A stretch of DNA of 64,000 nucleotides from Candidatus Harrisonbacteria bacterium (lineage in GTDB: Bacteria; Patescibacteriota; Minisyncoccia; UBA6257; 02-FULL-45-10c), in assembly GCA_016192685.1 (NCBI GenBank), contig JACPTS010000001.1, positions 311,647 to 375,646 on the forward strand. The letters run 5' to 3'. Of this stretch, positions 1 to 50,984 are shown piece by piece. The stretch's first letter is position 1. Every line of letters starts with the position of its first letter. The notes under the pieces are model-generated. The model was given only the letters and a program-made list of their open reading frames with translations. It was not told the origin of the DNA and did no database searches. The position numbers and the translations under genes were made by a program.

Positions 1-253
1 ATCAATGGCGTTTTTGTGCCAGGAATTGAGAAAGAATTCGGTAAGCATTTCTTTTATTTGTCCATAGGTTGCTGGGAGCGGTTGGCGGTTTTCTCTTGAT
101 CGTTGTATAAATCTTCCTATTGCATGCCCCCCGATAACTACTTTTGATTTGTCAATGTCTGCCTCGCTGGCTATGACTCTGTTGTCAATTATCACAGCGC
201 ACGCCTCCTTTTATTCAGAATTAACTGCTATTATAAATGATAGCACTAAACTA

Positions 254-2380
254 TTATTTTGTCAATTGCTTGATGGAAAGCCCGATTTTTCCGTTTTCCA
301 TTTTAACGATTTTTGCCCGGACAAAATCTCCCAATCTTAAGACATCTTCCACTTTTTTGACGTAACCTTCTTTTAATTCGGAAACGTGAATCATCCCGTC
401 TTTGCCGCCGCCGAATTCCACGATGGCGCCGAATTCCAGAATTTTCACCACGGTCCCCTCCACAATATCGCCGATTTTATATTCTTTGGTAATCGCCATT
501 ACCTCGGCAAGCGCCTTCTGTCCGGTTTCCTGATTAGCGGCAGTAATGAATACCCGGCCGTCGTCTTCTATATCTATAGTAGTGACGCCGGTTTTTTCAA
601 TAATGCCGTTAATTACTTTGCCGCCCGGACCGATTAACCCCCCGATTAATTCCGGATTAATTTGAAGCGAAATAATGCTTGGCGCGAACGGCGAAAGCTG
701 CGGCCGCGGCGCGGATAGAGCTTGATTCATGGTTTTTAAGATTTCCAGCCGGGCTTCTTTTGCCTGCGCTAAAGTTTTTTCCAGCATTTCCGGGGTAATG
801 CCCTGGATTTTGACATCCATCTGGATGGCAGTGACGCCGGAATCCGTGCCGGCGGCTTTAAAATCCATATCGCCATGATGGTCTTCCGGGCCCTGGATAT
901 CAGTCAAAACCTTATAGGACTTATTGGACTTATTAGTTTTATCGGACTGATCAATCATAAGCCCCATCGCAATTCCGGCAGCCGGCTTTCTAATTGGCAC
1001 TCCGGCATCCATCAGTGATAAACTGCCGGCGCAAACCGTGGCCATGGAAGAAGAGCCGTTGGAAGAAAGAATTTCGGAAACCAAACGGATAGTATAAGGA
1101 AATTGTTCCTGTGCTGGAATTAAATTCCGGAGCGCTTTGTGGGCGAGATTGCCGTGGCCGATATCTCTTCGGCCCGGGCCGCGGAATGGGCCGATTTCCC
1201 CGACCGAATACGGCGGGAAATTGTAATGAAGCAAAAATCGGCGCTTGCCGGAAAATTCAACGGTTTCCACCAGTTGCTGGTCTCCCGGAGCGCCGAGAGT
1301 GGTGACCCCCAGAGCTTGGGTATTGCCGCGAATAAATAAAGCCGAGCCGTGGACGCGCGGCAAAAGCGCCACTTCGGAATGAAGCTCCCGAAGCTCGTTT
1401 AATTTCCGGCCGTCCGGCCGTTTTTCTTCCTTAAGAATTTTTTCGTGGACTAAGTCGTTGATTTCTTCTTCAAAAAGATTATTGGCCGCGATTAGCTCCT
1501 TTTCGGAATATTCCTTTTTTTCCAAATGTTCTTTCAGGGAATTTTTTAAGCCGCCCAAATTTTCATACATTTCCTGTTTATTGGGATTATAAACCGCTTT
1601 TTCCAGTTTGTTTTTGAGGAAACTCTTAATTTCTTTTTTTAATTTTTCATCCGGTTCAGCGAGGCCGACTTTTGCTTTCGGCTTGCCGATTTCTTTAATA
1701 ATAGTTTCTTGCCAATGGATAAGTTTTTGAATTTCTTTGTGTCCCTCGGAAAAGGCCCGCACTACTTCTGATTCTTGCGCTTCATTGCCTTCCAGCTCAA
1801 TCATATTTATCCGTTCTTTGGTTCCGGAGAGAAAAGCGTCCATTTCCATTTGGGCATTGGCAGTTTCGCTTAAATTGGGATTAAATTTTACTTCGGAAGC
1901 GCCTTTGGTTTTAAATATTTTTACTCCGGCCACCGGACCGTCCCAGGGAATCGGAGATATGGCAAGCGCCGCGGAAGCGGCCAGCAAGCCGATAAAATCC
2001 GGGTCATTTTCTCCGTCATAAGTTAAGACCGTTACTACCAGCTGGATTTCCCGCCGCATTTTTTGGTCAAAAAGCGGGCGGATGGTCCGGTCAATCAGCC
2101 GTCCGGTAAGAATTGCTTCGTCTGAAGACCGCCCCTCGCGCCGGACAAAGCGGCTGCCAAGAATTTTCCCGGCGGCATAAAATTTTTCTTCGTAATTTAC
2201 CATCAGCGGGAAATAATCTTTATCAATGTCTTTTTTACTCATGACTACCGTTGCCAAAACAGTGGTGTCGCCATAGCGCCCAAGTACCGAAGCATCGGCT
2301 TGATCCGCCAAGCGGGAAACTTCCAGCGTCAGCGGCTTTCCGGCGAAATCCATTTTAAATTGTTTCCGTCCTAAATTCAT
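254..2380 (-). CDS. pnp: polynucleotide phosphorylase (PNPase)
   Basis: 708 aa; two RNase PH-like cores, KH and C-terminal S1 domain (GDIVEGTVVKILEFGAIVEF...); lies downstream of rpsO as in the classical rpsO-pnp locus. Confidence 0.9.
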   Translation of the reverse strand: MNLGRKQFKMDFAGKPLTLEVSRLADQADASVLGRYGDTTVLATVVMSKKDIDKDYFPLMVNYEEKFYAAGKILGSRFVRREGRSSDEAILTGRLIDRTIRPLFDQKMRREIQLVVTVLTYDGENDPDFIGLLAASAALAISPIPWDGPVAGVKIFKTKGASEVKFNPNLSETANAQMEMDAFLSGTKERINMIELEGNEAQESEVVRAFSEGHKEIQKLIHWQETIIKEIGKPKAKVGLAEPDEKLKKEIKSFLKNKLEKAVYNPNKQEMYENLGGLKNSLKEHLEKKEYSEKELIAANNLFEEEINDLVHEKILKEEKRPDGRKLNELRELHSEVALLPRVHGSALFIRGNTQALGVTTLGAPGDQQLVETVEFSGKRRFLLHYNFPPYSVGEIGPFRGPGRRDIGHGNLAHKALRNLIPAQEQFPYTIRLVSEILSSNGSSSMATVCAGSLSLMDAGVPIRKPAAGIAMGLMIDQSDKTNKSNKSYKVLTDIQGPEDHHGDMDFKAAGTDSGVTAIQMDVKIQGITPEMLEKTLAQAKEARLEILKTMNQALSAPRPQLSPFAPSIISLQINPELIGGLIGPGGKVINGIIEKTGVTTIDIEDDGRVFITAANQETGQKALAEVMAITKEYKIGDIVEGTVVKILEFGAIVEFGGGKDGMIHVSELKEGYVKKVEDVLRLGDFVRAKIVKMENGKIGLSIKQLTK

Positions 2381-2383
2381 AGT

Positions 2384-2902
2384 TTATTTTTTAAGCAGCA
2401 TTTTTGGCATTTCACCCAAATCAATAAATTCATCGGCTACCTCTTTTATTTTTCCGGAAGCGCTGCGGCCAAAAGCCGCCACTTCTACCGTCAGCCCTTT
2501 GCCCCATTTTAAATATTCCACCAGCGGGATAAAATCTCCGTCGCCGGTAACTAAAATTACCACGTCTAAAAGTTCGGACATTCGGATGGCGTCTACCGCC
2601 ATGCCCACGTCCCAATCCGCTTTTTTCATTCCGCCGGCGTAAATCTGCAAATCTTTGCTCCGAAGTTCCAAACCAGCCTTCACCAAAGCGTCAAAAAATT
2701 CCGCTTCGCCTTTGGCGGTTTCGCTTTTTACCACGTATGCCATGGCGCTGATAAGTTTTCGCCCGGCCACCAGCTCTTTCATCAATTCTTTATAATTGAC
2801 CCGAGCGTGATATAAGTTTTTAGAAGAGTGGTAGAGATTTTGGATGTCAATAAAAATTCCTACTCTCTGATCTTTTCGCTTCATTTGCTTTATGTAACGC
2901 AA
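2384..2902 (-). CDS. NYN/LabA-like (PIN-like) domain protein, predicted RNase
   Basis: 172 aa; GIFIDIQNLYH...VILVTGDGDF motif typical of NYN/LabA (DUF88); stop lies 3 bp from the pnp start (translational coupling). Confidence 0.65.
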   Translation of the reverse strand: MRYIKQMKRKDQRVGIFIDIQNLYHSSKNLYHARVNYKELMKELVAGRKLISAMAYVVKSETAKGEAEFFDALVKAGLELRSKDLQIYAGGMKKADWDVGMAVDAIRMSELLDVVILVTGDGDFIPLVEYLKWGKGLTVEVAAFGRSASGKIKEVADEFIDLGEMPKMLLKK

Positions 2903-2970
2903 ACGATGCGAACATATACGGATACTGCCAACAAATTATTTTGTTCGCGGCATTCGCATACATTCGCCCG

Positions 2971-3005
2971 TCCTCCGCAGTAGCTGTCGCTACAGCTACG
3001 GAGGA
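2971..3005 (-). promoter_or_regulatory. GC-rich stem-loop in the rpsO 3'UTR / leader of NYN-pnp
   Basis: imperfect inverted repeat tcctccg-cagtagctg...cagctac-cggagga, preceded by another inverted repeat gcgaaca...tgttcgc; no U-run follows on the minus strand, so more a processing/regulatory hairpin than an intrinsic terminator. Confidence 0.45.
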
Positions 3006-3027
3006 TGGATAGGTTTGCATTGTGTAT

Positions 3028-3294
3028 TTATTTTTTTAATCCTAATTTTTTAATTAAAGTAGTATAAGTTTTTGAATTTCTCTTGGAGAGATAATCCAAT
3101 AACCTTTTTCTTTTGCCGACCATTTTTAATAGCCCTCTTCGGGAGAGGTTGTCTTTCCGGTGCTTTTTAAGGTGTCCGGTTAATTCTTCAATGTTTTTGG
3201 TTAAAAGCGCCACCTGTACCTGGGGTGAACCAGTGTCGGTCTCGTGCTCGCCGTGTTCTTTTAAAATATTCAATTTTTGCCTGGTAGTTAACAT
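3028..3294 (-). CDS. rpsO: 30S ribosomal protein S15
   Basis: 88 aa, typical S15 sequence ([39 protein letters not shown]). Confidence 0.9.
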
Positions 3295-3374
3295 TGTTAT
3301 TTATTATATTATATTTCTTTAAAAAAATCAAGCCCTTTATCTGTCGCAAAACGTTTTCCTGATATAATGAAAAT

Positions 3375-4286
3375 ATGGCATCAATCGAAAAATCTTTAAA
3401 AGACTACCTGGATTATCTGGAAATTGAGAAAAATCGTTCGCCGAAAACGCGGGAGAATTACGAACGATATTTAAAAGCATTTATAAATTTTTCTAAAATT
3501 AAAAAGCCGGAAAAAATTACGGCGGAAAATATAAAAAACTTCCGGGCGCATTTGGCAAGAAAAGAAAATCTTAAGAAGCTGACACAAACTTATTACGCCA
3601 TTGCCATAAGGAACTTTTTAAAATATCTGATTAAAAACGATTACGAAGTTTTATCGCCGGACAAAATTGAATTGCCCAAAATCGCCCGACGGCAGATTGA
3701 TATTATTGAATACGCGGATTTGGAAAGGTTTTTAGCGGCGCCGGCGCAAAACACTTTGCGCGGCCTGCGGGACCGGGCGATTTTGGAAATGCTTTTTTCC
3801 ACCGGCCTCCGTATTTCCGAACTTTGTAATTTAGACCGCTATCTTAATTTAAATCGCGGAGAAATCACGGTTCGCGGTAAGGGTGAAAAATTAAGAGTGG
3901 TATTTTTGTCTGACCGCGCCAAAGCCGCGATAAAAAATTGGCTGGACAAACGCACCGATACTTTGGAACATTTGTTTATCAGCTTTTCTAAACAGACTTC
4001 GCCGCTTGCCCAGCCGAAAGTAATCGGAAAAATCACGCCGCGGGCAGTCCAGCGCTTGGTGGAATTTTATCGCCGCAAAGCCGGCATCGCCAAAAATATT
4101 ACTCCCCACCAACTTCGCCACCAATTTGCCACTGATTTATTGGTGAACGGCGCGGATTTGCGTTCGGTGCAGGAACTGCTTGGCCACAGCAATATCTCTA
4201 CTACCCAAATTTATACTCATCTTACCAATAAAGAATTGCGGGAAGTCCATAAATCTTTTCATGCCGCCCGCCGGAAGCGATATTGA
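3375..4286 (+). CDS. tyrosine site-specific recombinase, XerC/XerD family
   Basis: 303 aa; N-terminal SAM-like core-binding domain; catalytic R...K...HxLRH...Y (HQLRHQFATDL, GHSNISTTQIYTHL). Confidence 0.85.
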   Translation: MASIEKSLKDYLDYLEIEKNRSPKTRENYERYLKAFINFSKIKKPEKITAENIKNFRAHLARKENLKKLTQTYYAIAIRNFLKYLIKNDYEVLSPDKIELPKIARRQIDIIEYADLERFLAAPAQNTLRGLRDRAILEMLFSTGLRISELCNLDRYLNLNRGEITVRGKGEKLRVVFLSDRAKAAIKNWLDKRTDTLEHLFISFSKQTSPLAQPKVIGKITPRAVQRLVEFYRRKAGIAKNITPHQLRHQFATDLLVNGADLRSVQELLGHSNISTTQIYTHLTNKELREVHKSFHAARRKRY

Positions 4287-4353
4287 CTTTCGTTTATAAT
4301 TATGTTATAAATTTATAAGCTGTTCGTTAATTCTTACATAAAGGGGAGGGATA

Positions 4354-4557
4354 ATGACGATAAATCCGGGCTTCAGGGACAGAAGTCTTACGGCGGTGGA
4401 AAGGAGAGCCGCAGAGCTGATTCCGGCAGAGGAAAAGTTGGACAAGGTTCTGCCTATTCTTCAGCAGGCGAATAACCTGCGAGTGTGTGACCGGTGCGGC
4501 ATGTTCCGGAAAGTCTGCCGAAGTTCCTGCCGGAAACACCCCGTCTTACGTCCCTAA
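4354..4557 (+). CDS. small Cys-rich hypothetical protein (GC-rich, likely acquired)
   Basis: 67 aa; strong SD aaaggggaggg 7 nt upstream of ATG; CDRCGMFRKVCRSSC cysteine cluster; GC content clearly above neighbours; followed by a strong intrinsic terminator. Confidence 0.45.
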   Translation: MTINPGFRDRSLTAVERRAAELIPAEEKLDKVLPILQQANNLRVCDRCGMFRKVCRSSCRKHPVLRP

Positions 4558-4566
4558 GCTGATTCA

Positions 4567-4600
4567 AAAAAGCCCATTCTCAATTGAGAATGGGCTTTTA
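4567..4600. terminator. bidirectional intrinsic terminator
   Basis: aaaagcccattctc-aatt-gagaatgggctttt hairpin between convergent genes. Confidence 0.7.
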
Positions 4601-5272
4601 GCTTAAAAATATCCTCCAGACAGCATCAGTCGCGCCGTGAACAAGGATGGGTACTATTATATTTTCCGATTCCAGATAGGCAAGGCCGTAAATAAGGCCA
4701 GCCAGAAATGCCAGGCCAACATATTTCCAATTGGGGAAAATTCCGCCGCCGGAAAGATGGCTGTAAATGCAGGCAAAAATTGCCGTAGTAATTAAAAGCG
4801 CCAGCCAATCATTCACCCATTTTCTTAATAAGTTAAGAATCAGGCCGCGGAAAATTAATTCTTCGCTTGGCGCCACAAACAGGAAATAGCCGGCAAACGT
4901 TTCCAGGATTAATTTTGGATTTTCAATCGGATGGAATTTTAAAAATCCGATGGCAAAACCGATTGGCAGAATCAGCACTGCCAGCATAGCAAGATAATCC
5001 CTTATCAGCAGAAGTTCATATTTAGAAAAGCTAAAATTTAATTTAATGCCACGGTTTTTTAAGTAGAAAAGCGCCAGCAGAATTAAAATAGTCGCGGAGA
5101 TTTCATAAGCATAGCCAAGGCCCAAATCAATAAGATAATTTTGCCAAATCTTTAAATTAAAAATCTGCCACGAACTTAAAAAGAATAAAATATCCCAGCG
5201 ATTTAAAGAATTCGTATTTTTAGTTTTCAAAATACAGCAAAGAGATAAGGCAATGCTTAACCAAAAAAGCAT
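4598..5272 (-). CDS. CPBP-family intramembrane metalloprotease (CAAX protease-like)
   Basis: 224 aa polytopic; EELIFRG, FxxxH and HGxxD motifs of the CPBP/Abi family. Confidence 0.75.
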   Translation of the reverse strand: MLFWLSIALSLCCILKTKNTNSLNRWDILFFLSSWQIFNLKIWQNYLIDLGLGYAYEISATILILLALFYLKNRGIKLNFSFSKYELLLIRDYLAMLAVLILPIGFAIGFLKFHPIENPKLILETFAGYFLFVAPSEELIFRGLILNLLRKWVNDWLALLITTAIFACIYSHLSGGGIFPNWKYVGLAFLAGLIYGLAYLESENIIVPILVHGATDAVWRIFLS

Positions 5273-5336
5273 TTATCCTCCATTTACTTTCTTAAAAGAG
5301 ATTATCAGAAAAAATTTACTTTTTCAATTTCCGAAC

Positions 5337-5421
5337 TGGTGCTCGGGGTGGGACTCGAACCCACATGCCTTGCGGCGCATCCTCTTAAGGGATGTGCGTA
5401 TGCCATTTCGCCACCCGAGCA
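5337..5421 (-). tRNA. tRNA-Leu(TAA)
   Basis: cloverleaf with long variable arm, anticodon loop cuUAAga, CCA encoded. Confidence 0.85.
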
Positions 5422-5464
5422 TTTTTAGAATTTTAAATTGTTTAATTATAAAATTCAAATTTTG

Positions 5465-5536
5465 AGGCCACGGCCGGAATCGAACCGGCGAATAACTCTT
5501 TTGCAGAGAGTTGCCTTACCACTTGGCTACGTGGCC
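5465..5536 (-). tRNA. tRNA-Cys(GCA)
   Basis: cloverleaf, anticodon loop cuGCAaa, TTCGATT T-loop. Confidence 0.8.
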
Positions 5537-5551
5537 AACAAAATCATTTTA

Positions 5552-5896
5552 TTAGTTTTTTTGCTCTTTTTCAATCTTTATAAAAGTTTTTTCAATTTCC
5601 GCCGCTTTTTCTAATCCCAAATCTAACTTAAATCTAATTTCCGGCATCGGCTTGATATTTATTTTTTTCAAAAGCAAATGCCGCAAATTTTTCTGATTTT
5701 GAATTAAAATTTTCAATACTTCTTCGCCTTTTTCAGCCGGAATTACGGAAACCTTAACTGCCGCGTAATCCAAATCCTTTTGCGCCTCTACTCCAACCAC
5801 CGTCATCAAAGCCCCGGGAAATTCCAGTTCTTTTAAAATAAGCTTGTCTAACTCTTCTCTTATTAAACTTTCCACCCTTTGATGCCGTTGGTACAT
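5552..5896 (-). CDS. rbfA: ribosome-binding factor A
   Basis: 114 aa, RbfA KH-like fold sequence; immediately downstream of infB (conserved infB-rbfA order). Confidence 0.85.
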   Translation of the reverse strand: MYQRHQRVESLIREELDKLILKELEFPGALMTVVGVEAQKDLDYAAVKVSVIPAEKGEEVLKILIQNQKNLRHLLLKKINIKPMPEIRFKLDLGLEKAAEIEKTFIKIEKEQKN

Positions 5897-7380
5897 TACT
5901 TAGATAGAAGTTTATCTCCAACCTGGATTTTAATATCGGATTCAAAAATCAGCCCGCACTCATTGCCCTCATTCACGGCATTAACATCTTTTTTCCCTTG
6001 CTGAAGATTTAAAACTTTTCCCTTGCCGATAATTTCTTCGCCCCTTTGTATTTCCAGCCAGGATTTTATCCTAATCTGCCCGCGATTAACCCGGCCGCCG
6101 ATAGTTTGTTTGCCGCCCTTCGCGCCGAAAACGGCCAGGATTTCCAGCTCGCCGCTGTATTTGCTTTTGCCCATTTCCAAAAAGGTTTTCTCAATTCCTT
6201 CCACTAATTTATAAATAATTTCATCTGTTACTATAGTAATTTCCTGCGCCCGCGCTAAATTTTCCGCGGCTTTATTCGGTTTAGTCCGGAACCCTAAAAT
6301 CATCGCTTTGGTGGCGACGGCGTCTTTGATATCGCCATCGGTAATTTCCCCGACCGATTGGCCGATAACATCCAAAGTCTGATTTTCTTTAATTGGAATT
6401 TTTCGCAAAAGATCATGCAGGGCTTCCAATGAGCCGGCGACATCGGCTTTTAAAATTACTTTGATAGTCTGGGATTCTTTATTGCTGGTGTCTGAAGCCC
6501 CCAATTTTTTGGATGCCGTTTTAGTAACTTTTTTCAAGTCTTCTTCAGAAAGCTGGCCAGAAATAAATTCTTCGCCGATCTCCGGCAAACTTTCAAATCC
6601 TAAAATTACCGCCGGACTGGACGGCTGAAGTTCGGTTACCGGTTTTCCCAAAAAATTTTCTAAAATTTTTACCTTGCCTTTGGCGGTGGCAGTCGCAATA
6701 AGGTCTCCTTTTTTTAGTCCTCCGTCTTTTAAAATAACCGTGACTGTATTTCCTCGCTTATTGTCTAATTTTGCTTCTAAAATTACTCCGGCAGCCCGGT
6801 GTTCTGGATTATAATGAAGTTCTTCTAAGTCGGCAGTAAGCAAAATTAAATCTAGAAGCTCATTGATACCCTCGCCGGTTTTGGAAGAAACGCCTTGATG
6901 ACTGATATTGCCGCCATAACCTTCCAATAATACGCCGTTGGCGGTTAAATCATTTTTTACCCTTTCTAAATCCGCGTTTGGCTTGTCGGTTTTTGTCATT
7001 GCCACCACAAAAGGCGTTTCCGAATCTTGCAGGGCTTTCAAGGCTTCTTTGGTTTGCGGTTTTACCCCTTCGTCAGCGGCAACCACTAAAATTCCGACAT
7101 CTGCCACATGCGCGCCCCGAACCCGCATCTTGGAAAACGCCTCGTGTCCGGGAGTATCAATAAAAGTGATTTTTCGGCCGCCATGCTCAATTTCATAAGC
7201 GCCAACCGATTGAGTTATACCCCCGGCCTCTTTTAAGGCAACGTTAGTTTTTCGGACATAATCAAGCAAACTGGTTTTGCCGTGGTCAACATGCCCAACC
7301 ACTACTACCACCGGCGGGCGCTTTTCAGCCATAGGCTGATCCGCCTTCGGCGGAAAATTTTTCACATTTTCTTCATTCAT
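5896..7380 (-). CDS. infB: translation initiation factor IF-2 (short form lacking N-terminal domains)
   Basis: 494 aa; G-domain VVVVVGHVDHGKTSLLD, DTPGHEAF, NKxD; C-terminal beta-barrel domains. Confidence 0.9.
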   Translation of the reverse strand: MNEENVKNFPPKADQPMAEKRPPVVVVVGHVDHGKTSLLDYVRKTNVALKEAGGITQSVGAYEIEHGGRKITFIDTPGHEAFSKMRVRGAHVADVGILVVAADEGVKPQTKEALKALQDSETPFVVAMTKTDKPNADLERVKNDLTANGVLLEGYGGNISHQGVSSKTGEGINELLDLILLTADLEELHYNPEHRAAGVILEAKLDNKRGNTVTVILKDGGLKKGDLIATATAKGKVKILENFLGKPVTELQPSSPAVILGFESLPEIGEEFISGQLSEEDLKKVTKTASKKLGASDTSNKESQTIKVILKADVAGSLEALHDLLRKIPIKENQTLDVIGQSVGEITDGDIKDAVATKAMILGFRTKPNKAAENLARAQEITIVTDEIIYKLVEGIEKTFLEMGKSKYSGELEILAVFGAKGGKQTIGGRVNRGQIRIKSWLEIQRGEEIIGKGKVLNLQQGKKDVNAVNEGNECGLIFESDIKIQVGDKLLSK

Positions 7381-7453
7381 AAGGATTTACTTAAAATAAC
7401 AGAAAATTTAATAATTTACAAATATTAAAATTTAAATTAAACTCAATTGATAC

Positions 7454-7540
7454 GGAGGTGTGGCCGAGTGGCTTAAGGCAGCATCCTGCTAAGATGTTAA
7501 CCGGGAAACCGGTTCGAAGGTTCGAATCCTTCCACCTCCG
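7454..7540 (+). tRNA. tRNA-Ser(GCT)
   Basis: class II tRNA with long variable arm, anticodon loop cuGCUaa. Confidence 0.8.
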
Positions 7541-7556
7541 CAAAAATTAAAAATTT

Positions 7557-7994
7557 ATGAATTTTGAAAAAATGCCAAAAGAAAAAACAAAATTTTTAAT
7601 ATCGGAATCGGAACTGGAATTTGAAACCAGCCGGAGCGGCGGCAAAGGCGGCCAGAATGTTAATAAGGTGGAAACGAAAGTCGCAGTTCGCTGGGATTTC
7701 AGGAATTCGCCGGCCCTAACCGAAGAACAAAAATATTTGATTGCCGAAAATCCGATTCTTAAAAATAGAATCAATGAGGCGGGGGAAATACTTATCTATT
7801 CCCAAGCCGAACGTTCCCAGGCGCAAAATCGGGAAAAAGCGATTGTAATTTTAAATGATTTAGTGAATCAGGCGCTGGCAGTTCCGGAAGAGCGGAAAGA
7901 AACTAAAGTGCCAAGGCGGGAAAAAGAAAAACGGCTGGAAGAAAAAAGTAAAAAATCAGAAAAGAAAGCATTGAGAAAAAAAGAAAATTATTAA
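7557..7994 (+). CDS. arfB: alternative ribosome-rescue factor ArfB / peptidyl-tRNA hydrolase (GGQ domain)
   Basis: 145 aa; GGQ motif (SGGKGGQNVNKVETKV) plus basic C-terminal tail. Confidence 0.8.
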   Translation: MNFEKMPKEKTKFLISESELEFETSRSGGKGGQNVNKVETKVAVRWDFRNSPALTEEQKYLIAENPILKNRINEAGEILIYSQAERSQAQNREKAIVILNDLVNQALAVPEERKETKVPRREKEKRLEEKSKKSEKKALRKKENY

Positions 7995-8035
7995 ACGCCC
8001 CCGCTTTGCGGAGGCGTTTTTGTTAAAATTAAAAT

Positions 8036-8998
8036 ATGAAGATTAGAGTCGCGGTTTTAATGGGCGGGCCTTCGTCAGAACACGAGGTTTCTTTGAAAAC
8101 CGGGGAAATGATTTTAAAAAATTTGAATCCGGAAAAATTCGCGGCCTTTCCGGTAAAAATAGAGAAAAACGGCTCTTGGCCGATAACTTTAAAAGAATTA
8201 AAAGAGAAATGTGATATCGCTTTTATTGCCATGCACGGTGAATACGGCGAAGACGGCCAACTGCAAAGCATTTTGGAAGTTTTTAAAATTCCTTATACCG
8301 GTTCTGGGCCGATTGTGAGTGCTTTGGCGATAGACAAGCAAAAAACCGCTCAATTGCTTTCCCAAAACGGCTTGCTTGCCCCGGAGGCAATTTTGGTAAA
8401 AAGGAACGACTCCTATGCTGAATGGGCGATTCAGAAAAGCTTTTCTACCCCGTTAGTAATTAAGCCGGCTGACCGGGGATCAAGCGTTGGCGTAAGTTTA
8501 GTTTCCGTCCGGAATAAATTAAAAGAAGCCATTGCCCGGGCTGGTAATTATTCCGAATCCGTGATGGCCCAGCGTTATATTCAGGGGCGGGAAGTTACCT
8601 GCGGAGTTTTGGAAATCAACGGCACTGCTATCCCGCTGGTTCCCACCGAAATTATCCCGAAACAAGGAATAATTTTTGATTACCGTGCCAAATACGCGAT
8701 CGGCGGCTCTGACGAAATTACTCCGCCAAACCTTCCGAGAAAAACCGTTAAAAATATCCAGATGATTGCTTTGAAAGCGCATAAATTATTGGGATGTTCC
8801 GGAATGTCCAGAACTGATATGATATTAACTGACGCAGGAAATTTATATATTTTGGAATTAAACACTATTCCCGGAATGACGGAAACCAGCCTTTTGCCTC
8901 AGCAAGCGGCGGCGATGGGCATAAATTTTCCTCAGCTTTTAGAAATAATTATTCGTAGCAGCCTGCAAAAACACGAAAAGTATGGAAAAGGAAATTAA
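8036..8998 (+). CDS. ddl: D-alanine--D-alanine ligase
   Basis: 320 aa; ATP-grasp; N-terminal RVAVLMGGPSSEHEVSL typical of Ddl. Confidence 0.85.
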   Translation: MKIRVAVLMGGPSSEHEVSLKTGEMILKNLNPEKFAAFPVKIEKNGSWPITLKELKEKCDIAFIAMHGEYGEDGQLQSILEVFKIPYTGSGPIVSALAIDKQKTAQLLSQNGLLAPEAILVKRNDSYAEWAIQKSFSTPLVIKPADRGSSVGVSLVSVRNKLKEAIARAGNYSESVMAQRYIQGREVTCGVLEINGTAIPLVPTEIIPKQGIIFDYRAKYAIGGSDEITPPNLPRKTVKNIQMIALKAHKLLGCSGMSRTDMILTDAGNLYILELNTIPGMTETSLLPQQAAAMGINFPQLLEIIIRSSLQKHEKYGKGN

Positions 8999-9455
8999 AG
9001 AAATAATCTGGCAAGCGTCAGAATTTAAGTACCAGTATAAAGATGTTTCCTGGTACTGGCTGACGATTATCGCCGCCGGCATTTTATTTTTGGTTTCCCT
9101 CTGGCAGGGGAATTTTCTTTTCGCTTTATTTATCGTGATTGCCGAAGCCACTCTGCTTTTTTGGGCTAAGGAACTGCCGAAAGTTATTCATTTTAAACTG
9201 GACAAAAAAGGCATTCAACTGGGGAAAATAAAATCTTATCAATACGAAGATTTAAAAGGATTTCATATCCGGGAAAGGGAGGAGGGGGCTTCGGAATTAA
9301 TTTTAAAAACCAGGAATAAGCTGCATCCTTATCTTAAAATTTTAATCGTTAATAAAGATATTCCGGAAATTAAAGAATTTTTAAAAAAGCATTTGGAGGA
9401 AATAGAATACGAGGAATCTTTATCCGAAAGCTTAGCCGAAAAGATTGGATTTTAA
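8982..9455 (+). CDS. hypothetical membrane protein
   Basis: 157 aa, two predicted TM helices, no recognisable domain. Confidence 0.5.
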   Translation: MEKEIKEIIWQASEFKYQYKDVSWYWLTIIAAGILFLVSLWQGNFLFALFIVIAEATLLFWAKELPKVIHFKLDKKGIQLGKIKSYQYEDLKGFHIREREEGASELILKTRNKLHPYLKILIVNKDIPEIKEFLKKHLEEIEYEESLSESLAEKIGF

Positions 9456-9487
9456 ATAAGATTTTTTGTCTTGGTATTGAAAAATAA

Positions 9488-9518
9488 TCCTAAAAGGATT
9501 ATTTTTTAATTAGATTCA
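9488..9518 (+). terminator. intrinsic terminator
   Basis: aaaaataatcc-taaaa-ggattatttttt. Confidence 0.6.
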
Positions 9519-9538: not shown

Positions 9539-10318
9539 GTGGCCAATCGAGTCTGGGTGTTTGATTTAGACGGCACATTAATGAACACTTTAGATTTGTA
9601 CGAAAAACCAAGAGAAAAAGCTTATGCCCTCATTACTGAAATTTTAGGAGACAAATCCCCCGCCTTAAATGAAATTAAAGAAAGACACAGTAAATTAGAT
9701 AAAGAACTGATTCCTGCCATTGATCCCTCAACCGGCAAACCTTATCTTTATACCAAACGGCGCTTCCCGACTTCTTTCGTGGAAATTTTTAAAATTTTAT
9801 GCAAAGAATCCGGGTTAGAATTAAGCGCTTCCGACGAAAGAAGGTATTATAATCAGCTTTATAAGATTGGCCTGGAAGCATTTAAGAAAGAAAGGTATAA
9901 AAGGAAAATTAAGCCGCAGGCTTTTACCGTTGTCCGGTTTTTGCGCAGACAAGAAGATATTTTGGTTATTTTGACCAAGGGTGATAAAGGCGTTCAAAAC
10001 GATAAAAAAGGCGCATTAAAGGAAGCTGGCCTGTTAAAGTTTTTTAAGGAATTTATTACCGTGCCCGACAATAAAGAGAAAGCTTTTAGAGATATTATGA
10101 AGCGATATCCAGCAGAGAGCTATTATAGCATCGGCGATACTTATGGCTGGGACATTCTTCCGGCAATAAAATCCGGATATTTCGGGATATACATCCCCTC
10201 TGCGGCAAATTGGATGGAAATAGGCAAGCTGAAAAAAATAGAGCGGCAAAGGAGTAAAATCAGGTCTAACCGATATGAAAGTTTAATTGAAATAAAGGAA
10301 AAATATGACTATTTGTGA
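9539..10318 (+). CDS. HAD-superfamily hydrolase
   Basis: 259 aa; motif I VFDLDGTL; GTG start. Confidence 0.7.
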   Translation: MANRVWVFDLDGTLMNTLDLYEKPREKAYALITEILGDKSPALNEIKERHSKLDKELIPAIDPSTGKPYLYTKRRFPTSFVEIFKILCKESGLELSASDERRYYNQLYKIGLEAFKKERYKRKIKPQAFTVVRFLRRQEDILVILTKGDKGVQNDKKGALKEAGLLKFFKEFITVPDNKEKAFRDIMKRYPAESYYSIGDTYGWDILPAIKSGYFGIYIPSAANWMEIGKLKKIERQRSKIRSNRYESLIEIKEKYDYL

Positions 10319-10319
10319 A

Positions 10320-10343
10320 ACACCCTATTAAAGGGTGTTTTTT
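10320..10343 (+). terminator. intrinsic terminator
   Basis: acaccct-attaa-agggtgt followed by ttttt. Confidence 0.7.
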
Positions 10344-10349
10344 AATGGT

Positions 10350-10525
10350 GTGAAACATTTTGTGAAACATTGGTGTAAACTTTGTGCTTAAACAGCCCAG
10401 CACCCAGTTACATGAAACAATTTTATAGAGGGTAATATAAATTAAGCAAAGTGTTTCACGCTTATTTTGTGAAACATCCGGCATTTTTTAAGCTCAAAGT
10501 AGTTAGGGTACCGTTACGTGAAACA
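10350..10525. repeat. cluster of 7 GTGAAACA octamers (both orientations), iteron-like
   Basis: copies at 10350, 10362, 10373 (GTGTAAAC), 10412 (ATGAAACA), 10453 (rc), 10469, 10518; lies between HAD terminator and the 3' end of the LAGLIDADG gene. Confidence 0.6.
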
Positions 10526-10972
10526 CCTTTGTTGAAATTTTTTGGCTTTTTCTTCAAAATAGCCCCTTTTATATAAACCAAACAGAACTTTATAGTCAGG
10601 ATGAACATTTGGATCATTGCCGATTTTTTCTAACCAGGCAATAAATTGTTTTCCTTTAAACCCGATTAATTTTTTATTAAAAAATGGTATTATTATATCT
10701 CGTAATTCGCCAAAATCTCTCACCATTATTCTTACTGTTTTTCCTCTTTTAAAACCATCTAAAAGATATGGCTTGAAAGTATAAACTTTATTTTTAACGC
10801 CTAAATATTCCCTAACTTTCTCAACTAGTTCTCTGTCGCGTTCATGCATACCAAGAATAAATGCGGGTATTTTTATTTTATTGCCATATCTATTTCTTTG
10901 AGGTATATTACAAAAAGAAAAACAACCTTCGCCATCTATTAATCCTCTAATATAGTCGGCAGTTATATCCAT
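10514..10972 (-). CDS. LAGLIDADG homing endonuclease (single-motif, freestanding)
   Basis: 152 aa; IRGLIDGEGCF motif near N-terminus; not embedded in an rRNA/tRNA gene in this window. Confidence 0.7.
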   Translation of the reverse strand: MDITADYIRGLIDGEGCFSFCNIPQRNRYGNKIKIPAFILGMHERDRELVEKVREYLGVKNKVYTFKPYLLDGFKRGKTVRIMVRDFGELRDIIIPFFNKKLIGFKGKQFIAWLEKIGNDPNVHPDYKVLFGLYKRGYFEEKAKKFQQRCFT

Positions 10973-11043
10973 ATAGTTTCACAACAAACTTTCTTAATTT
11001 GTTATCGCGATAACAATTATATCATGTAATTCATAAAACATCT

Positions 11044-11424
11044 ATGACCAAAAAATCCGAAATAGGCAAATTAGGCGAAGATATTGCTTGCGAATATTTG
11101 TTAAACAAAAGTTTCACGATTATTGAACGTAATTTTAGGCAGCCGTGGGGAGAAATTGATATTATTACTAAAAATCCGGGCGGCGCCTTAGTTTTTGTAG
11201 AAGTAAAGACTATGCAGCAATACGGCAATAATGCGGCAATTGCCGCATTATTGCCGGAAGATAATTTAACCAAATCAAAATTAAAAAAACTGCAGAGAAT
11301 TTCCTATTTATACGCTAATCATAATTCTGAATTATTAGATGATAGGCAAGGATGGCAAATTGATTTAATAACTATCGTCCTTAATGAAGCCGGAACTGAT
11401 ATAAAACATTTTGAAAATATTTAA
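11044..11424 (+). CDS. YraN-family (UPF0102) endonuclease
   Basis: 126 aa; GKLGEDIACEYL...GEIDII...VFVEVKT restriction-endonuclease-like fold; contains a short insertion (QQYGNNAAIAALLPEDN). Confidence 0.7.
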   Translation: MTKKSEIGKLGEDIACEYLLNKSFTIIERNFRQPWGEIDIITKNPGGALVFVEVKTMQQYGNNAAIAALLPEDNLTKSKLKKLQRISYLYANHNSELLDDRQGWQIDLITIVLNEAGTDIKHFENI

Positions 11425-27041: not shown

Positions 27042-27532
27042 AAGGAATTACTTTAATCGGAATGCCGGGATCGGGGAAATCTACTATCGGTAAATTACTT
27101 GCCAAAAAATTGGGGTGTAAATTTGTTGACTTGGATATCTTGATTAAAGAAAAAGAAAACCGCGGACATGAGGAAATTTTAGAAAAAGACGGCGGGGCGG
27201 AACTTTTGCGGCTGGAAAATTTGTATACTCTTGATTTGGATTTAGAAAATACCGTCTTTTCCCCCGGCGGAAGCATTGTTTATTCTTTGCCGGCAATGAG
27301 AAAACTCCAAAAAGAAACTAATATTATTTATTTAAAATTACCGCTTTTGGAAATAGAAAATCGTTTAGGCGGCAAAATTGATAGCCGGGGAATTGTTGGT
27401 TTTAAAGAAAAAGGGATTAAAAAGCTTTTTCGAGAACGGGATATTTTATATAAAAATTTTTCCCATAAAATCATTTCCTGTTTGGGATTAGATAAAGAAC
27501 AGCTTATTTATGAAATTTTACAGCACCAATAA
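27038..27532 (+). CDS. shikimate-kinase-family P-loop kinase embedded in the thr operon (candidate non-orthologous homoserine kinase)
   Basis: 164 aa; Walker A GMPGSGKST, FVDLD, SPGGSIV (SK-type GGG motif); overlaps asd stop and thrC start. Confidence 0.6.
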   Translation: MKGITLIGMPGSGKSTIGKLLAKKLGCKFVDLDILIKEKENRGHEEILEKDGGAELLRLENLYTLDLDLENTVFSPGGSIVYSLPAMRKLQKETNIIYLKLPLLEIENRLGGKIDSRGIVGFKEKGIKKLFRERDILYKNFSHKIISCLGLDKEQLIYEILQHQ

Positions 27533-28868
27533 CCCTCCTTCGCATAAAGCTACGGAAGGCAAGAAAATCCATTTCGTTGATTTTAGAACGGCACTGCTAC
27601 AAGGATTGGCTTTAGATGGCGGACTTTTTATGCCGGAAAGATTTCCAAAATTGAATAAGAAATTCTTAAAAGATATTTCTAAAAAGGAATTTTGGAAAAT
27701 CGCTCTGGAAATCAGCAAAGGTTTTATTAAAGATATTCCGGAAAGAGAATTAAAGAAGATGCTAAAAGACGCTTTTAATTTTGAAGTGCCGCTGAAAAAA
27801 ATAAACGAAAATTTATATATTTTAGAGCTTTGGCATGGGCCAACTTTGGCTTTCAAGGATTTTGGCGCGCGGTTTATGGCCCGGCTCATGAATTATTACC
27901 TGCGCCGCGAAAAGGAAAAATTAAACATTATTGTCGCTACTTCTGGGGACACCGGGAGTGCGGTGGCGCAAGGATTTTATGGATTATCTAACATAAAAGT
28001 TTTTGTTTTATATCCGAGTAAACGCATAACTGCGCTTCAAGAAAAACAAATGGCAACGCTCGGTAAAAACATTGTGTCATTGGAAGTAAAAGGAAATTTT
28101 GATGATTGCCAAAAACTTGCCAAACAAATATTGGCAGATAAAGATTTAAAAGAAAAAATAAATTTATCTTCAGCCAATTCTATAAATTTTGGAAGATTAC
28201 TTCCGCAATCCTTTTATTATTTTTACGGTTATGCCCAATTACTAAATAAGTTAAAAGTTAAAAGTGAAAAATTAAAAGTTATTTATTGTGTTCCCAGCGG
28301 GAATTTCGGCAATTTAACCGCCGGATTAATGGCGAAACAAATGGGTTTGCCCGTGAAACAATTTATCGCGGCGACGAATGCGAATGATATTGTTCCGCAA
28401 TATCTCAGAACCGGAAAATTTGTTTCACGCGTTTCGTGTAAAACAATTTCTAACGCCATGGATGTCGGCAATCCGAGCAATTTTGCGAGGATGCTGGAAA
28501 TGTTTCACGGCGATGTAAAACAAATGCGCCGCGAAATTATTGGTTTCGGTGTAAGTGACAAACAAACGCGTGAAACAATTAAAAATGTTTATCGTAAAAC
28601 CGGCTATATTTTAGATCCGCATACTGCGGTTGGAATTGCCGCGGCGCGCAAAAGCAATATTTTGCAACCGATTATCGTATTAAGCACCGCGCATCCTGCT
28701 AAATTCAGAGAAGCGGTGGAGCCGGTTATAAGCAAAAAGATTTCCTTGCCGCCGCAGCTCAAAAAAATTATTAATAAAGCCAAAAAGGCGACTTTGGTGG
28801 AAAATAATGTTGAGACGGTTAAGCGGATTATTTTAGAAAAATATGGACATATCAAAAAAACCGCCTGA
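27510..28868 (+). CDS. thrC: threonine synthase
   Basis: 452 aa; PLP-fold; FKDFGARFMA, ATSGDTGSA motifs. Confidence 0.85.
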   Translation: MKFYSTNNPPSHKATEGKKIHFVDFRTALLQGLALDGGLFMPERFPKLNKKFLKDISKKEFWKIALEISKGFIKDIPERELKKMLKDAFNFEVPLKKINENLYILELWHGPTLAFKDFGARFMARLMNYYLRREKEKLNIIVATSGDTGSAVAQGFYGLSNIKVFVLYPSKRITALQEKQMATLGKNIVSLEVKGNFDDCQKLAKQILADKDLKEKINLSSANSINFGRLLPQSFYYFYGYAQLLNKLKVKSEKLKVIYCVPSGNFGNLTAGLMAKQMGLPVKQFIAATNANDIVPQYLRTGKFVSRVSCKTISNAMDVGNPSNFARMLEMFHGDVKQMRREIIGFGVSDKQTRETIKNVYRKTGYILDPHTAVGIAAARKSNILQPIIVLSTAHPAKFREAVEPVISKKISLPPQLKKIINKAKKATLVENNVETVKRIILEKYGHIKKTA

Positions 28869-47395: not shown

Positions 47396-47576
47396 TCCGC
47401 CGAATTGTCTACGAATTTTACTCGCCCTGCCTGTATTTCTGACGGCACAGCCCCGCTTTGCGGGGCTACGCCTCAACGCCAAAAATTTAGGCTACCATTA
47501 TGCGATCGCATAATGGTAGCCTAAATGCCGAGCTTTTGGCGTTTCCGTAGTTGCCGCACAAAACACAGGCAGAGCT
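47396..47576 (+). repeat. structured repeat element, copy E (variant)
   Basis: flanks ctgcctgt / acaggcag; box1 variant GACGGCACAG; GCTACGCCTCA; 66-nt perfect palindromic hairpin centred on gcgatcgc; box3 variant TTCCGTAGTTGCCGCACA; upstream segment ttccgccgaattgtctacgaa shared with D. Confidence 0.85.
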
Positions 47577-50915: not shown

Positions 50916-50984
50916 TTGTGTTATAATATTCAATGAAAGGTCGATTTGTGTTTTATACACGATATAATACGAATCTACGAAATT

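Follow-up and report, generated by a model that had tools for sequence, protein, structure and literature searches.

The 64-kb stretch of DNA analysed here (the window) carries, between a HAD-family hydrolase gene and yraN, a cluster of 8-bp repeats that abuts a LAGLIDADG homing-endonuclease gene, which raises the question of whether these repeats belong to the endonuclease or serve the chromosome itself. A preliminary description of the locus had left several options side by side, namely a binding array for a regulator, a replication or partition-like site, or the remnant or target region of the mobile endonuclease. The evidence presented below favours the partition-like site, since the 8-mer is a half-site of parS and orthologous arrays contain full parS. 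As far as we are aware, there is no experimental knowledge of how Patescibacteria, which are ultra-small and mostly uncultivated, segregate their chromosomes, and we found no description of parS sites from these bacteria in the literature searched.

Results

Exact copies of the motif cluster at two loci and match one arm of parS

The window contains ten exact copies of GTGAAACA, as compared to 0.85 +/- 0.81 expected from 100 dinucleotide shuffles, in which the maximum was three. The comparison of expected and observed counts suggested in the preliminary description places the motif above background within the window. Six copies lie at 10315-10525 (10315(+), 10350(+), 10362(+), 10452(-), 10469(+) and 10518(+)) and four within the coding sequence of thrC at 28353-28577 (28353(+), 28421(-), 28501(-) and 28570(+)), and there are none elsewhere in the window; 12 of the 13 GTGAAAC heptamers fall in 10315-11117 or 28353-28577. 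One-mismatch variants of GTGAAACA are in marginal excess over the whole window (53 versus 40.7 expected), and the signal thus resides in the clustering of exact copies, which is non-random.

GTGAAACA is identical to one arm of parS, the canonical chromosomal palindrome in which TGTTTCAC is followed directly by GTGAAACA. The complete sequence, TGTTTCACGTGAAACA, has been described as shared 'whatever the species' by the Par systems of chromosomes (PMC5450999), and the string recurs in 27 papers. The window itself holds no full palindrome: no 16-mer within three mismatches of parS (TGTTNCACGTGNAACA) was found in its 64 kb, and the best 16-mers, at 28345, 28430 and 28586, carry four mismatches and are only three in number, all located at or beside the thrC cluster. 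We consider it probable, judging from the sequences compared here, that the copies of GTGAAACA are parS half-sites and form a conserved, centromere-like candidate binding cluster for ParB/Spo0J on a Candidatus Harrisonbacteria-like (Patescibacteria) chromosome. Searches in six frames for ParB (GERRxR box II), ParA (KGGxGKT) and DnaA (DHTTV, GxGKTHL) motifs were negative for the window and 44 related sequences (~455 kb), and Pfam scans of 17 ORFs identified no partition or replication proteins.

The preliminary description had reported seven copies within 176 bp, in exact or one-mismatch form. Elements are indeed present at 10350, 10362, 10373, 10412, 10452, 10469 and 10518, but the one at 10373, GTGTAAAC, is an insertion variant and not a one-mismatch variant. 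The description had overlooked the copy at 10315-10322, a variant GTGAAACT at 10975-10982(-) and the thrC cluster (four exact copies and two of GTAAAACA). Framing the array as the 3' end of the endonuclease gene was too narrow, the unit being the HAD-yraN intergenic array together with the thrC cluster 18 kb away.

Orthologous arrays contain complete parS palindromes

A search for homologues of the HAD protein returned 42 sequences, all from Patescibacteria, which served to collect 28 syntenic loci. The order HAD - array - yraN is kept at ~20 related Patescibacteria loci, most of which are missing the LAGLIDADG gene, and the intergenic array is conserved in these endonuclease-free relatives, a comparison that the preliminary description had proposed. 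Perfect 16-bp parS sequences occur at the orthologous HAD-yraN locus in L007, L013/L014 and L023 (three each) and in L011 (two). Relatives carry up to 10 sites with no more than two mismatches to parS, spaced by about 48-50 bp, and in several of them 3-10 complete 16-bp palindromes occupy 0.3-1.2 kb of non-coding DNA. The ~49-bp spacing does not correspond to a tandem repeat at the sequence level when relatives' arrays are analysed with TRF, the sequence between sites not being repeated.

The 147 exact half-sites in 17 arrays share the upstream flank consensus TGTTTnnY, the opposite arm of parS. The arrays are 113-fold enriched in GTGAAAC (151 occurrences in 8.9 kb versus 39 in 264 kb), and all other array-enriched 7-mers overlap it. 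A phylogenetic footprint gave the same picture, with the invariant columns of a 6-genome alignment coinciding with the sites. Half-sites and full sites are mixed inside single arrays and interconvert between close relatives; in L022, tandem direct pairs alternate with distinct palindromes of sequence TGTTTGCCGCGAAACA. The lineage of the window retains half-sites only, in fixed arrangements that consist of a tandem pair at 12-13 bp and of TGTTTCAC-N6/N9-GTGAAACA.

Architecture of the HAD-yraN array

The conserved left anchor of the array is the HAD-family hydrolase gene (9539..10318, plus strand; Pfam PF00702), whose TGA stop codon (10316-10318) sits within the first GTGAAACA (10315..10322, plus strand). 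This half-site also overlaps the 5' arm of the stem of the gene's intrinsic terminator hairpin (10319..10345, plus strand), which reads ACACCCU..AGGGUGU followed by a U-run and folds with -13.7 kcal/mol (z=-3.85). The overlap between half-site and HAD stop is shared by L004, L009, L010, L012 and L024, and relatives carry a terminator with another stem sequence (cagcgc..gcgctg) in an equivalent position. Next come the tandem direct half-sites GTGAAACA-N4-GTGAAACA (10350 and 10362), which together with the degenerate third unit GTGTAAAC (10373) span 10350..10380 on the plus strand and are reported by TRF as 3.2 copies of period 12. Nearly all relatives have a direct pair with an N4/N5 spacer directly after the HAD terminator, and adjacent same-strand pairs with N4-5 spacers were counted 16 times. 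The columns of the tandem pair are invariant in alignment A2, as are those of the conserved element TGTGCTTAA that follows it (10383..10391, plus strand; inside ttGGTnnnnnnTTTGTGCTTAAA).

Further along, the composite GTTAC-ATGAAACA (10408..10419, plus strand) consists of a variant half-site (ATGAAACA at 10412) after a shortened left arm, and the string 'cc/caGTTACRTGAAACA' is unchanged across the window, L004, L005, L009, L012 and L016. It is followed by a split inverted pair, TGTTTCAC-N9-GTGAAACA (10452..10476, no strand assigned), which is also found in L004, L005, L008, L012, L015 and L024, with an N6 form in L005, L009 and L016; over the arrays, gaps of the minus-plus class were N0 in eight cases, N6 in three and N9 in six. 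The last array site (10510..10525, plus strand) is composed of ACCGTTAC abutting GTGAAACA and matches parS at 11 of 16 bases. It overlaps the endonuclease stop (10514-10516) and the last three codons of that gene (..R C F T stop), in agreement with the overlap first described for the copy at 10518-10525, which lies in the last codons of the minus-strand ORF. Relatives free of the endonuclease keep the homologous last site, as in L005 (tgtttccgGTGAAACA) and L009. On the other side of the endonuclease gene, the variant half-site GTGAAACT (10975..10982, minus strand) is located 2 bp upstream of the ATG, and a junction in which GTGAAACtat or GTGAAACatt directly precedes the ATG is found in L004, L012 and L043 too. 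The conserved right anchor is yraN (UPF0102; 11044..11424, plus strand), identified by Pfam PF02021 and synteny, in which AGTTTCAC occurs at 11110 and positions 11223-11256 form a perfect palindrome of 34 bp. The first cluster occupies a gap between convergent genes, at a density of 6-8 sites in 200 bp.

The conserved geometries (direct copies at 12-13 bp, inverted arms with 6 or 9 bp between them) differ from the canonical ParB dimer site. They could be explained by a non-ParB DNA-binding protein, such as a regulator, a nucleoid-associated protein or a Noc-like ParB paralogue, that reads direct or split GTGAAACA, the palindromes of relatives then being the sites of a distinct ParB system at the same locus. 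Such a reader would fit the N4-5 direct pairs, the N6/N9 split pairs and GTTAC-RTGAAACA, and the alternation of tandem pairs with TGTTTGCCGCGAAACA in the modules of L022 gives the impression of two classes of site. However, none of the loci has a candidate binding protein linked to its array, the flanks of the half-sites bear the other parS arm, and the mixing and interconversion of half and full sites are most simply explained by one reader; a transcription regulator, moreover, would be poorly placed at convergent intergenic and intragenic positions. We thus regard a non-ParB reader as rather unlikely.

The motif was also sought outside chromosomal arrays. A scan of IMG/VR for the tandem pair gave at least 120 matches, almost all of them isolated pairs in unrelated contigs with GC contents of 0.22-0.71, and HAD, YraN, endonuclease and ParB were absent from almost all of these contigs. 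In a different context, a few phage contigs carry direct GTGAAACA arrays of 12-bp period by a primase-like gene, with no palindromes, which speaks for a reader other than ParB. Given tandem pairs in unrelated phage contigs, GTGAAACA is not exclusive to ParB/parS; these matches are uninformative about the chromosomal array.

The second cluster is constrained within the thrC coding sequence

The second cluster (28353..28577, no strand assigned), inside the thrC coding sequence, comprises four exact half-sites and GTAAAACA at 28438 and 28515, in geometries that include TGTTTCAC-N9-GTAAAACA and TGTTTCAC-N6-GTAAAACA. It is conserved in L032, L033 and L034, at 59-75% protein identity. Codons within the sites are synonymously frozen (7/10 versus 18% background, p=2.7e-4): TTT-GTT-TCA..AAA-ACA-ATT is identical in 4/4 genomes, whereas adjacent synonymous positions vary. 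These codons and the invariant columns of A2 indicate that the DNA sequence of the motif is itself conserved, irrespective of what it encodes. In the window as in relatives, the sites are restricted to the two loci, 18 kb apart. The location of parS inside genes is normal in chromosomal systems.

We also considered that the locus could be a chromosomal replication origin, or part of one, with a DnaA-box cluster in which GTGAAACA (TGTTTCACA on the other strand) or TGTGNNTAA would act as boxes. Indeed, TGTGCTTAA resembles a DnaA box, being one base from TGTGNATAA, and occurs six times in the arrays versus 0.03 expected for a pattern picked post hoc; tGTGAAACA fits the relaxed box TTWTNCACA at 8/9 positions in 4/6 copies of the first cluster, and the arrays hold 14 occurrences of TGTGNNTAA versus 0.44 expected (also a post hoc pattern) and three of perfect TTATNCACA versus 0.21. 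A canonical DnaA-box (TTATNCACA) cluster is, however, absent from the window array, and other lineages carry TTGAGCCTA in place of the DnaA-like pattern. The base preceding GTGAAACA is C, as in parS, in 4/4 thrC and 82/147 array copies, whereas a DnaA-box reading requires a preceding T, which is found in 56/147 array copies. Relatives do show as much as 1.2 kb of AT-rich, non-coding sequence at the locus, which is unusual in such compact genomes, and in the window both gene strand and GC skew switch at ~7.4 kb, 3 kb from the array; yet this skew merely tracks gene strand, and in L004, L005, L007 and L023 genes are co-oriented across the array, with equal positive skew and no switch. Since dnaA and dnaN were not found within -10/+53 kb either, an origin at this locus appears quite improbable. 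Given TGTGCTTAA and the DnaA-box-like sequences of the arrays, at least one further factor may be involved.

The LAGLIDADG gene is an optional insertion

The minus-strand gene at 10514..10972 encodes a 152-residue, free-standing, single-domain LAGLIDADG protein, confirming the single-motif assignment first made. It matches Pfam PF00961 (E=3.7e-11, model positions 2-100 of 102) and carries the motif GLIDGEG with its acidic residue in place. Sequence matches in the PDB (E=2e-16) are to I-PanMI and the I-OnuI family, the one domain being half of I-OnuI-type enzymes. As noted previously, it is outside any intron or intein; none was detected around it, nor was a tRNA or an Rfam RNA, and no host gene or RNA is interrupted. 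The gene is present in the window, L004, L012, L019, L021 and L024, and absent from at least 12 syntenic loci, L005, L007-L009, L011, L013-L017 and L023 among them. It is thus a sporadic, optional insertion between the array and yraN, whose product is a predicted nuclease.

Upstream of the gene lies a 5' leader (10999..11024, minus strand) with an extended -10 element, TGATATAAT (11016-11024), followed by TTGTTATCGCGATAACAA (10999-11016), an 18-bp perfect palindrome. L004 and L043 retain this leader along with the gene, L043 reading TTGTTCTCGCGAGAACAA, a symmetric change that preserves the palindrome. The leader probably represents a promoter plus operator. All 60 homologues of the endonuclease are from Patescibacteria, and the family recurs beside yraN within parS-like arrays; homologues with 43-59% identity in distant Patescibacteria (L040, L042, L043) likewise reside within arrays of this kind, and the L042 gene has on its flanks an inverted repeat of ~40 bp that contains the tandem pair. 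We found no description of a parS-like array as a niche for this endonuclease family in the literature searched. Alignment of filled and empty alleles gave no exact insertion boundaries, as flanks beyond the motifs are too diverged. An 11-nt match, aacaaaggtgt, between the 3' end of the gene and the empty L009 allele is probably due to chance, being on the opposite strand.

This pattern of presence and absence bears on the idea that the array is the endonuclease's own or its remnant, which finds no support, as the same array is found without the gene in the closest relative, L009, and in at least 11 other loci. A related proposal is that the repeats are the homing target or footprint of a homodimeric single-motif LAGLIDADG enzyme that recognises half-sites arranged as a palindrome. 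Inverted copies lie at the two ends of the gene, with GTGAAACT 2 bp before the ATG and TGTTTCAC in the last codons; endonuclease-free alleles show GTGAAAC-N19-31-GTTTTAC there, and the L040, L042 and L043 homologues within similar arrays, together with the L042 inverted repeat and its tandem pair, point in the same direction. But the array is retained in most relatives, and in thrC, where the gene is missing, and the endonuclease therefore does not create it. We consider this proposal very improbable as an account of the repeats: the array would provide at most a landing site for the endonuclease, which could explain the location of the gene and not the function of the array.

A structured non-coding RNA or a CRISPR- or TIGR-like repeat-spacer guide array, suggested by the 16-bp palindromes that relatives carry every 48-50 bp with unrelated sequence in between and by the frequency of TIGR arrays in Patescibacteria (PMC12045711), is hardly conceivable, as there were no Rfam matches (gathering threshold or E<=1), folding of both strands was no better than that of shuffles (z=-1.2 and -0.2), the motif is on both strands and inside a protein-coding gene, no cas, tas or Nop genes are nearby, and the repeat is merely 8-16 bp and equal to parS. 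A replication origin of the iteron type, evoked by the name 'iterons' first given to the repeats, is not supported: plasmid or phage origins of this type have 17-22-bp direct iterons and a rep gene on a mobile replicon, while this motif is 8 bp long and present in both orientations at a syntenic chromosomal locus among housekeeping genes, with no rep gene.

Discussion

The parS half-site interpretation places the locus next to chromosomal type Ia ParABS systems such as those of B. subtilis, Caulobacter, Corynebacterium and Streptomyces. GTGAAACA is an arm of their TGTTTCACGTGAAACA, there are multiple sites per chromosome, some of them intragenic, and the orthologous arrays hold perfect copies. 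Unlike in those systems, the window has no full palindrome, and its half-sites are in fixed, non-canonical arrangements; the sites of relatives are also far denser than the dispersed parS of model chromosomes, with up to 10 full sites at ~49-bp spacing within about 1.2 kb of non-coding DNA. Dense short sites in direct and inverted orientation with regular spacing (~49 bp between the palindromes of relatives) are reminiscent of plasmid repeat-array centromeres, among which F sopC has 12 43-bp units with a 16-bp SopB palindrome, P1 parS has box A and box B, and R1 parC has iterons. The differences from plasmid centromeres are a chromosomal, syntenic context, the absence of adjacent parAB or rep genes, and unrepeated sequence between sites.

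Single arms of parS are bound by ParB in other bacteria. B. cenocepacia ParBc1 keeps 49% of the full-site signal on an isolated half-parS (PMC5450999), and in P. aeruginosa ChIP-seq revealed binding of ParB to isolated half-parS, for which spreading is not required (PMC10419367). The window's sites resemble these P. aeruginosa half-sites in sequence, being single arms; the Pseudomonas arms are bound by ParB independently of spreading, and a role in keeping ParB on the nucleoid has been suggested for them (Kawalek et al.; PMC10419367, PMC5961200). In contrast to the Pseudomonas heptamers, which number hundreds genome-wide, those of the window form two conserved clusters of fixed spacing and orientation, with the other ~63 kb empty. 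Half-site binding with no need for spreading (PMC10419367) makes the loading of clamps at the window array doubtful.

We infer that ParB is the binding protein, and the part played by the half-site geometry is proposed on the same footing. Each helix-turn-helix of ParB would recognise a single arm of 8 bp. At the full palindromes of relatives, dimers of the protein would be loaded as CTP-gated clamps, spread, and build a partition and SMC-loading complex. In a half-site-only genome, the array could instead keep the local ParB concentration high, as a landing pad or reservoir; the window array may be a weak centromere itself, or a helper to full parS sites elsewhere in the remaining ~540 kb of the 608-kb contig. 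The LAGLIDADG gene would be a selfish element in its own right, driven by its own promoter; it would have inserted between yraN and the last half-site, with its ORF extending into that half-site. A bolder reading for Harrisonbacteria-like Patescibacteria combines a half-site centromere, a non-canonical mode of ParB binding or loading and a possible second factor that reads the adjacent TGTGCTTAA/DnaA-box-like element with an array that is the dedicated homing niche of a Patescibacteria-specific, homodimeric LAGLIDADG family recognising an arrangement of parS arms; we consider this combination unlikely.

The predicted endonuclease resembles single-motif enzymes of the I-CreI/I-CeuI type in its single domain of ~150 aa and intact acidic motif (LIDGEG), and free-standing LAGLIDADG homing endonucleases in its sporadic presence at one locus and its own putative promoter. 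It differs from the LAGLIDADG genes inserted in CPR rRNA (PMC11270868) in that it is not in an intron, an intein or an rRNA gene. The locus further points to a family of selfish endonucleases that seems to inhabit centromere arrays.

An ordinary parS cluster here would be a routine annotation, a known element recorded for a new phylum; a genuine half-site centromere would imply a mode of ParB binding or loading unlike the canonical CTP clamp formed by a dimer on a palindrome. The candidate centromere sites of the locus are concrete, conserved and easy to synthesise, and close relatives form a natural series from full palindromes to half-site-only arrays, which makes it testable whether ParB nucleates, closes its CTP clamp and spreads from half or split parS arms. 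The HAD-array-yraN block and thrC could also serve as a marker for the origin-proximal domain in fragmentary MAGs; in L042 and L043 the arrays have gyrA at a distance of ~5.5 kb, a weak hint toward origin proximity.

parS half-sites form two clusters in the window

The DNA between a HAD-family hydrolase gene (9539-10318, + strand) and yraN/UPF0102 (11044-11424, +) carries repeated copies of the 8-mer GTGAAACA; the sequence at 10290-10540 runs ...tatttGTGAAACAccctattaaagggtgttttttaatggtGTGAAACAttttGTGAAACAttggtgtaaactttgtgcttaaaca...cagttacaTGAAACAatttt...aaagTGTTTCACgcttattttGTGAAACAtcc...ggtaccgttacGTGAAACAcctttg. Ten exact copies were counted in the 64-kb window, against 0.85 ± 0.81 expected from dinucleotide shuffles (shuffle maximum 3), so that within the window the motif is not at background frequency, a possibility for which the preliminary description had allowed. 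Six of the ten fall at 10315-10525, and four at 28353-28577, within thrC (threonine synthase; 27510-28868, +). All seven copies previously reported within 176 bp were found, but the unit at 10373 (GTGTAAAC) is an insertion variant and not a one-mismatch copy. The last copy, at 10518, falls within the final codons (R-C-F-T-stop) of the LAGLIDADG endonuclease ORF (10514-10972, -). Two elements had gone unnoticed: a copy at 10315, across the stop codon of the HAD gene, and GTGAAACT at 10975 (-), 2 bp 5' of the endonuclease ATG. The endonuclease ORF is convergent with the HAD gene, which ends in a terminator hairpin (10319-10345; folding -13.7 kcal/mol, z=-3.85), and divergent from yraN. Identical proteins, located on a 608-kb contig, carry the NCBI annotation Candidatus Harrisonbacteria, and the lineage belongs to Patescibacteria (CPR).

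GTGAAACA is exactly one arm of canonical parS, TGTTTCAC|GTGAAACA, the site of chromosomal ParB/Spo0J, which PMC5450999 describes as common to the Par systems of chromosomes 'whatever the species'; the string turns up in 27 papers. The 64-kb window has no 16-mer that matches the full site with 3 or fewer mismatches, and its only three 16-mers at 4 mismatches are located at or next to the thrC cluster.

The array is conserved in relatives

Related loci (5 genome and 23 metagenome) were fetched from the HAD-homologue alignment. They share the order HAD, array, LAGLIDADG gene (optional), yraN, porin-like gene (optional), large secreted protein and NusA. A GTGAAACA cluster was found in every locus extending beyond the HAD stop codon, endonuclease-free loci included, and essentially nowhere else, which answers the earlier question of whether the motif is conserved. 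GTGAAAC is 113-fold enriched (151 occurrences in 8.9 kb of arrays versus 39 in 264 kb of flanks), and no 7-mer independent of it was enriched in this comparison.

The arrays of L007, L008, L011, L013/14 and L023 are stretches of 0.3-1.2 kb of non-coding DNA with perfect 16-bp parS palindromes (three each in L007, L013 and L023, two in L011) and up to 10 sites within 2 mismatches of parS, typically spaced by 48-50 bp; no repetition was found in the DNA between the parS sites of relatives' arrays. The flanks of 147 exact half-sites show the upstream consensus T-G-T-T-T-n-n-Y, which is the other parS arm, and TT downstream. The lineage of the window (with L009, L004, L012 and L016) carries half-sites only, but their layout is conserved: one copy sits at the HAD stop codon, and a direct pair spaced by N4-5 comes right behind the terminator and precedes ttGGTnnnnnnTTTGTGCTTAAA. 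The other elements are ccGTTAC-RTGAAACA, TGTTTCAC-N9 (or N6)-GTGAAACA and a final site ahead of yraN or the endonuclease gene. The invariant columns of a 6-genome alignment match these elements. On the HAD tree, arrays that have full palindromes are mixed with arrays that lack them, which indicates that full sites and half-sites turn over rapidly. In L022 (920-1502), the array consists of four modules, each with a tandem pair GTGAAACAttagtGTGAAACA and, ~45 bp on, a variant 16-bp palindrome TGTTTGCCGCGAAACA, a layout that points to either two classes of site or a shift in the specificity of ParB.

Half-sites within thrC

The reading frame differs among the four half-sites in thrC (VKQ, FVS, MFH and RET). 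Homologous positions in the thrC genes of three relatives, whose proteins are 59-75% identical, hold 3-4 exact half-sites; two of these genes lie on the contigs that also carry arrays L004 and L008. Within the element TTT-GTT-TCA-CGN-GTT-TCG-NGN-AAA-ACA-ATT, 7 of 10 degenerate positions keep the same codon across the four genomes, compared with a background of 38/214 (18%; Fisher p=2.7e-4), which makes this the highest such stretch in the gene. Such codon freezing shows that the cluster is under DNA-level selection. The element of L033 contains a perfect TGTTTCAC-N6-GTGAAACA, and the thrC cluster and the intergenic array share the same N6/N9 'dialect'.

Probable ParB binding and alternative readings

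The most economical reading, and in our view a probable one, is that the array is a ParB-binding, parS-derived centromere-like cluster. The full parS sites of relatives would nucleate CTP-dependent ParB clamps. In this genome, the array made up of half-sites alone would at the least be bound by ParB arms and would then serve as a local reservoir of ParB or a weak centromere, possibly together with full sites elsewhere in the genome. It can be likened to the half-parS sites whose binding by ParB is documented in Burkholderia (PMC5450999) and P. aeruginosa (PMC10419367). The motif and the ParB/parS system are already well known; what is new is a dense arrayed form of parS at a fixed locus in Patescibacteria, a half-site-only variant with fixed geometry, a cluster embedded in coding sequence under synonymous constraint, and a LAGLIDADG family resident at the array. 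The weak points of the ParB reading are that no ParB was seen in the window or in ~455 kb of fetched related DNA, that direct and split arrangements of the kind conserved here are non-canonical, and that a second conserved element is left unaccounted for; a protein other than ParB might bind the array instead, which we regard as unlikely.

That the array is a replication origin or DnaA cluster is improbable. The form tGTGAAACA resembles a relaxed DnaA box, the arrays are strongly enriched in the DnaA-box-like TGTGNNTAA (14 versus 0.44 expected, for a pattern chosen post hoc), and those of L017 and L040 contain perfect DnaA boxes TTATNCACA. However, no dnaA was found in the window or fetched loci, the window holds no canonical DnaA-box cluster and its skew tracks gene strand, and in L004, L005, L007 and L023 the genes flanking the array point the same way and show the same positive skew on both sides. 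A DnaA-box-like element is present in the window at 10383-10391, in the form TGTGCTTAA.

The LAGLIDADG endonuclease gene

The endonuclease has a single domain (Pfam PF00961, E=3.7e-11) and matches one half of I-PanMI/I-OnuI-type enzymes among PDB sequences. With neither a tRNA nor an Rfam family nor an interrupted gene around the ORF in the window, the gene is free-standing and, as initially described, outside any intron or intein. It is carried by the window, L004, L012, L019, L021 and L024, always between the final site and yraN and on the strand opposite to yraN, and is absent at the syntenic locus from L005, L007-L009, L011, L013-L017 and L023, of which L009 is the closest relative of the window (75% HAD, 87% YraN identity). 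The array is intact in these empty alleles, contrary to the proposal that it is a remnant of the endonuclease, and the gene is thus an insertion beside the array, not its cause.

All 60 of 60 endonuclease homologues come from Patescibacteria. Four distant ones were fetched from other members of the group (L040-L043; 43-59% identity), three of which (L040, L042 and L043) lie within arrays of GTGAAACA and related 8-mers such as GTAAAACA; near that of L041 there is no exact GTGAAACA, and variant palindromes are found, the local one being TGTTTATCAAnnnTTGATAAACA. The homologues of L040, L041 and L043 are divergent from yraN (3/4 distant loci), and that of L042 is bracketed by a ~40-bp inverted repeat holding a tandem half-site pair. 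The residence of distant homologues in such arrays suggests that the family may home into them; that serving as endonuclease target is the primary meaning of the array is very doubtful.

In the 5' leader of the gene, an extended -10 TGATATAAT and a perfect palindrome of 18 bp, TTGTTATCGCGATAACAA (together 10999-11024), are followed by GTGAAACT-AT-ATG. L004 and L043 share this leader as well as the gene. In L043, whose endonuclease is 59% identical and whose left neighbour is a different one, the palindrome reads TTGTTCTCGCGAGAACAA, a symmetric substitution that retains dyad symmetry. The palindrome resembles an operator and might serve in autoregulation.

Further candidates and neighbouring features

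An RNA gene or guide array is hardly credible, as there are no Rfam matches and no excess folding, and copies of the motif stand on both strands and inside coding sequence. Likeness to a TIGR array was rejected, as was a phage or plasmid element, the locus being chromosomal and syntenic. The tandem pair occurs in at least 120 IMG/VR contigs, mostly as isolated pairs within unrelated sequence. Three phage contigs (L060, L103 and L138) carry non-coding direct GTGAAACA arrays with a 12-bp period (spacers cgaa, caaa and tttt) adjoining a large primase/helicase-like ORF, apparently an unrelated use of the 8-mer and possibly phage origin iterons.

Within yraN, a 34-bp perfect palindrome CGGCAATAATGCGGCAATTGCCGCATTATTGCCG (11223-11256) codes for part of a lineage-specific YraN insertion, and three independent Logan assemblies of the locus (L001-L003) all end near it; akin to it are CGGCAAT/ATTGCCG inverted repeats in the non-coding arrays of L007, L008, L017, L019, L021 and L022. 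Left of the HAD gene lies a block encoding RbfA, IF-2, an ArfB-like RF-1 domain protein, Ddl and a 157-aa membrane protein. Comparison of window 1-9500 with L032 13300-19400 and L033 15100-19500 placed this block 3' of thrC in relatives (inverted in L032 with respect to the window), and therefore a rearrangement breakpoint just upstream of the HAD gene. Beside tRNA-Gly (30006), 29330-29992 encodes a 220-aa protein with an N-terminal HTH_23 domain and a 'LYWAEGD' stretch, LAGLIDADG-like by eye only; because L004 and L021 have 31-34% identical homologues a few kb 5' of their HAD genes, this may be a further mobile gene of endonuclease-like character. Two very long perfect palindromes centred on CGATCG, of 42 and 44 bp and apparently intergenic, are found ~1 kb apart at 47485-47526 and 48460-48503, and three small genes of the type IV secretion system pilin family (PF18895) stand in tandem at 50092-51329.
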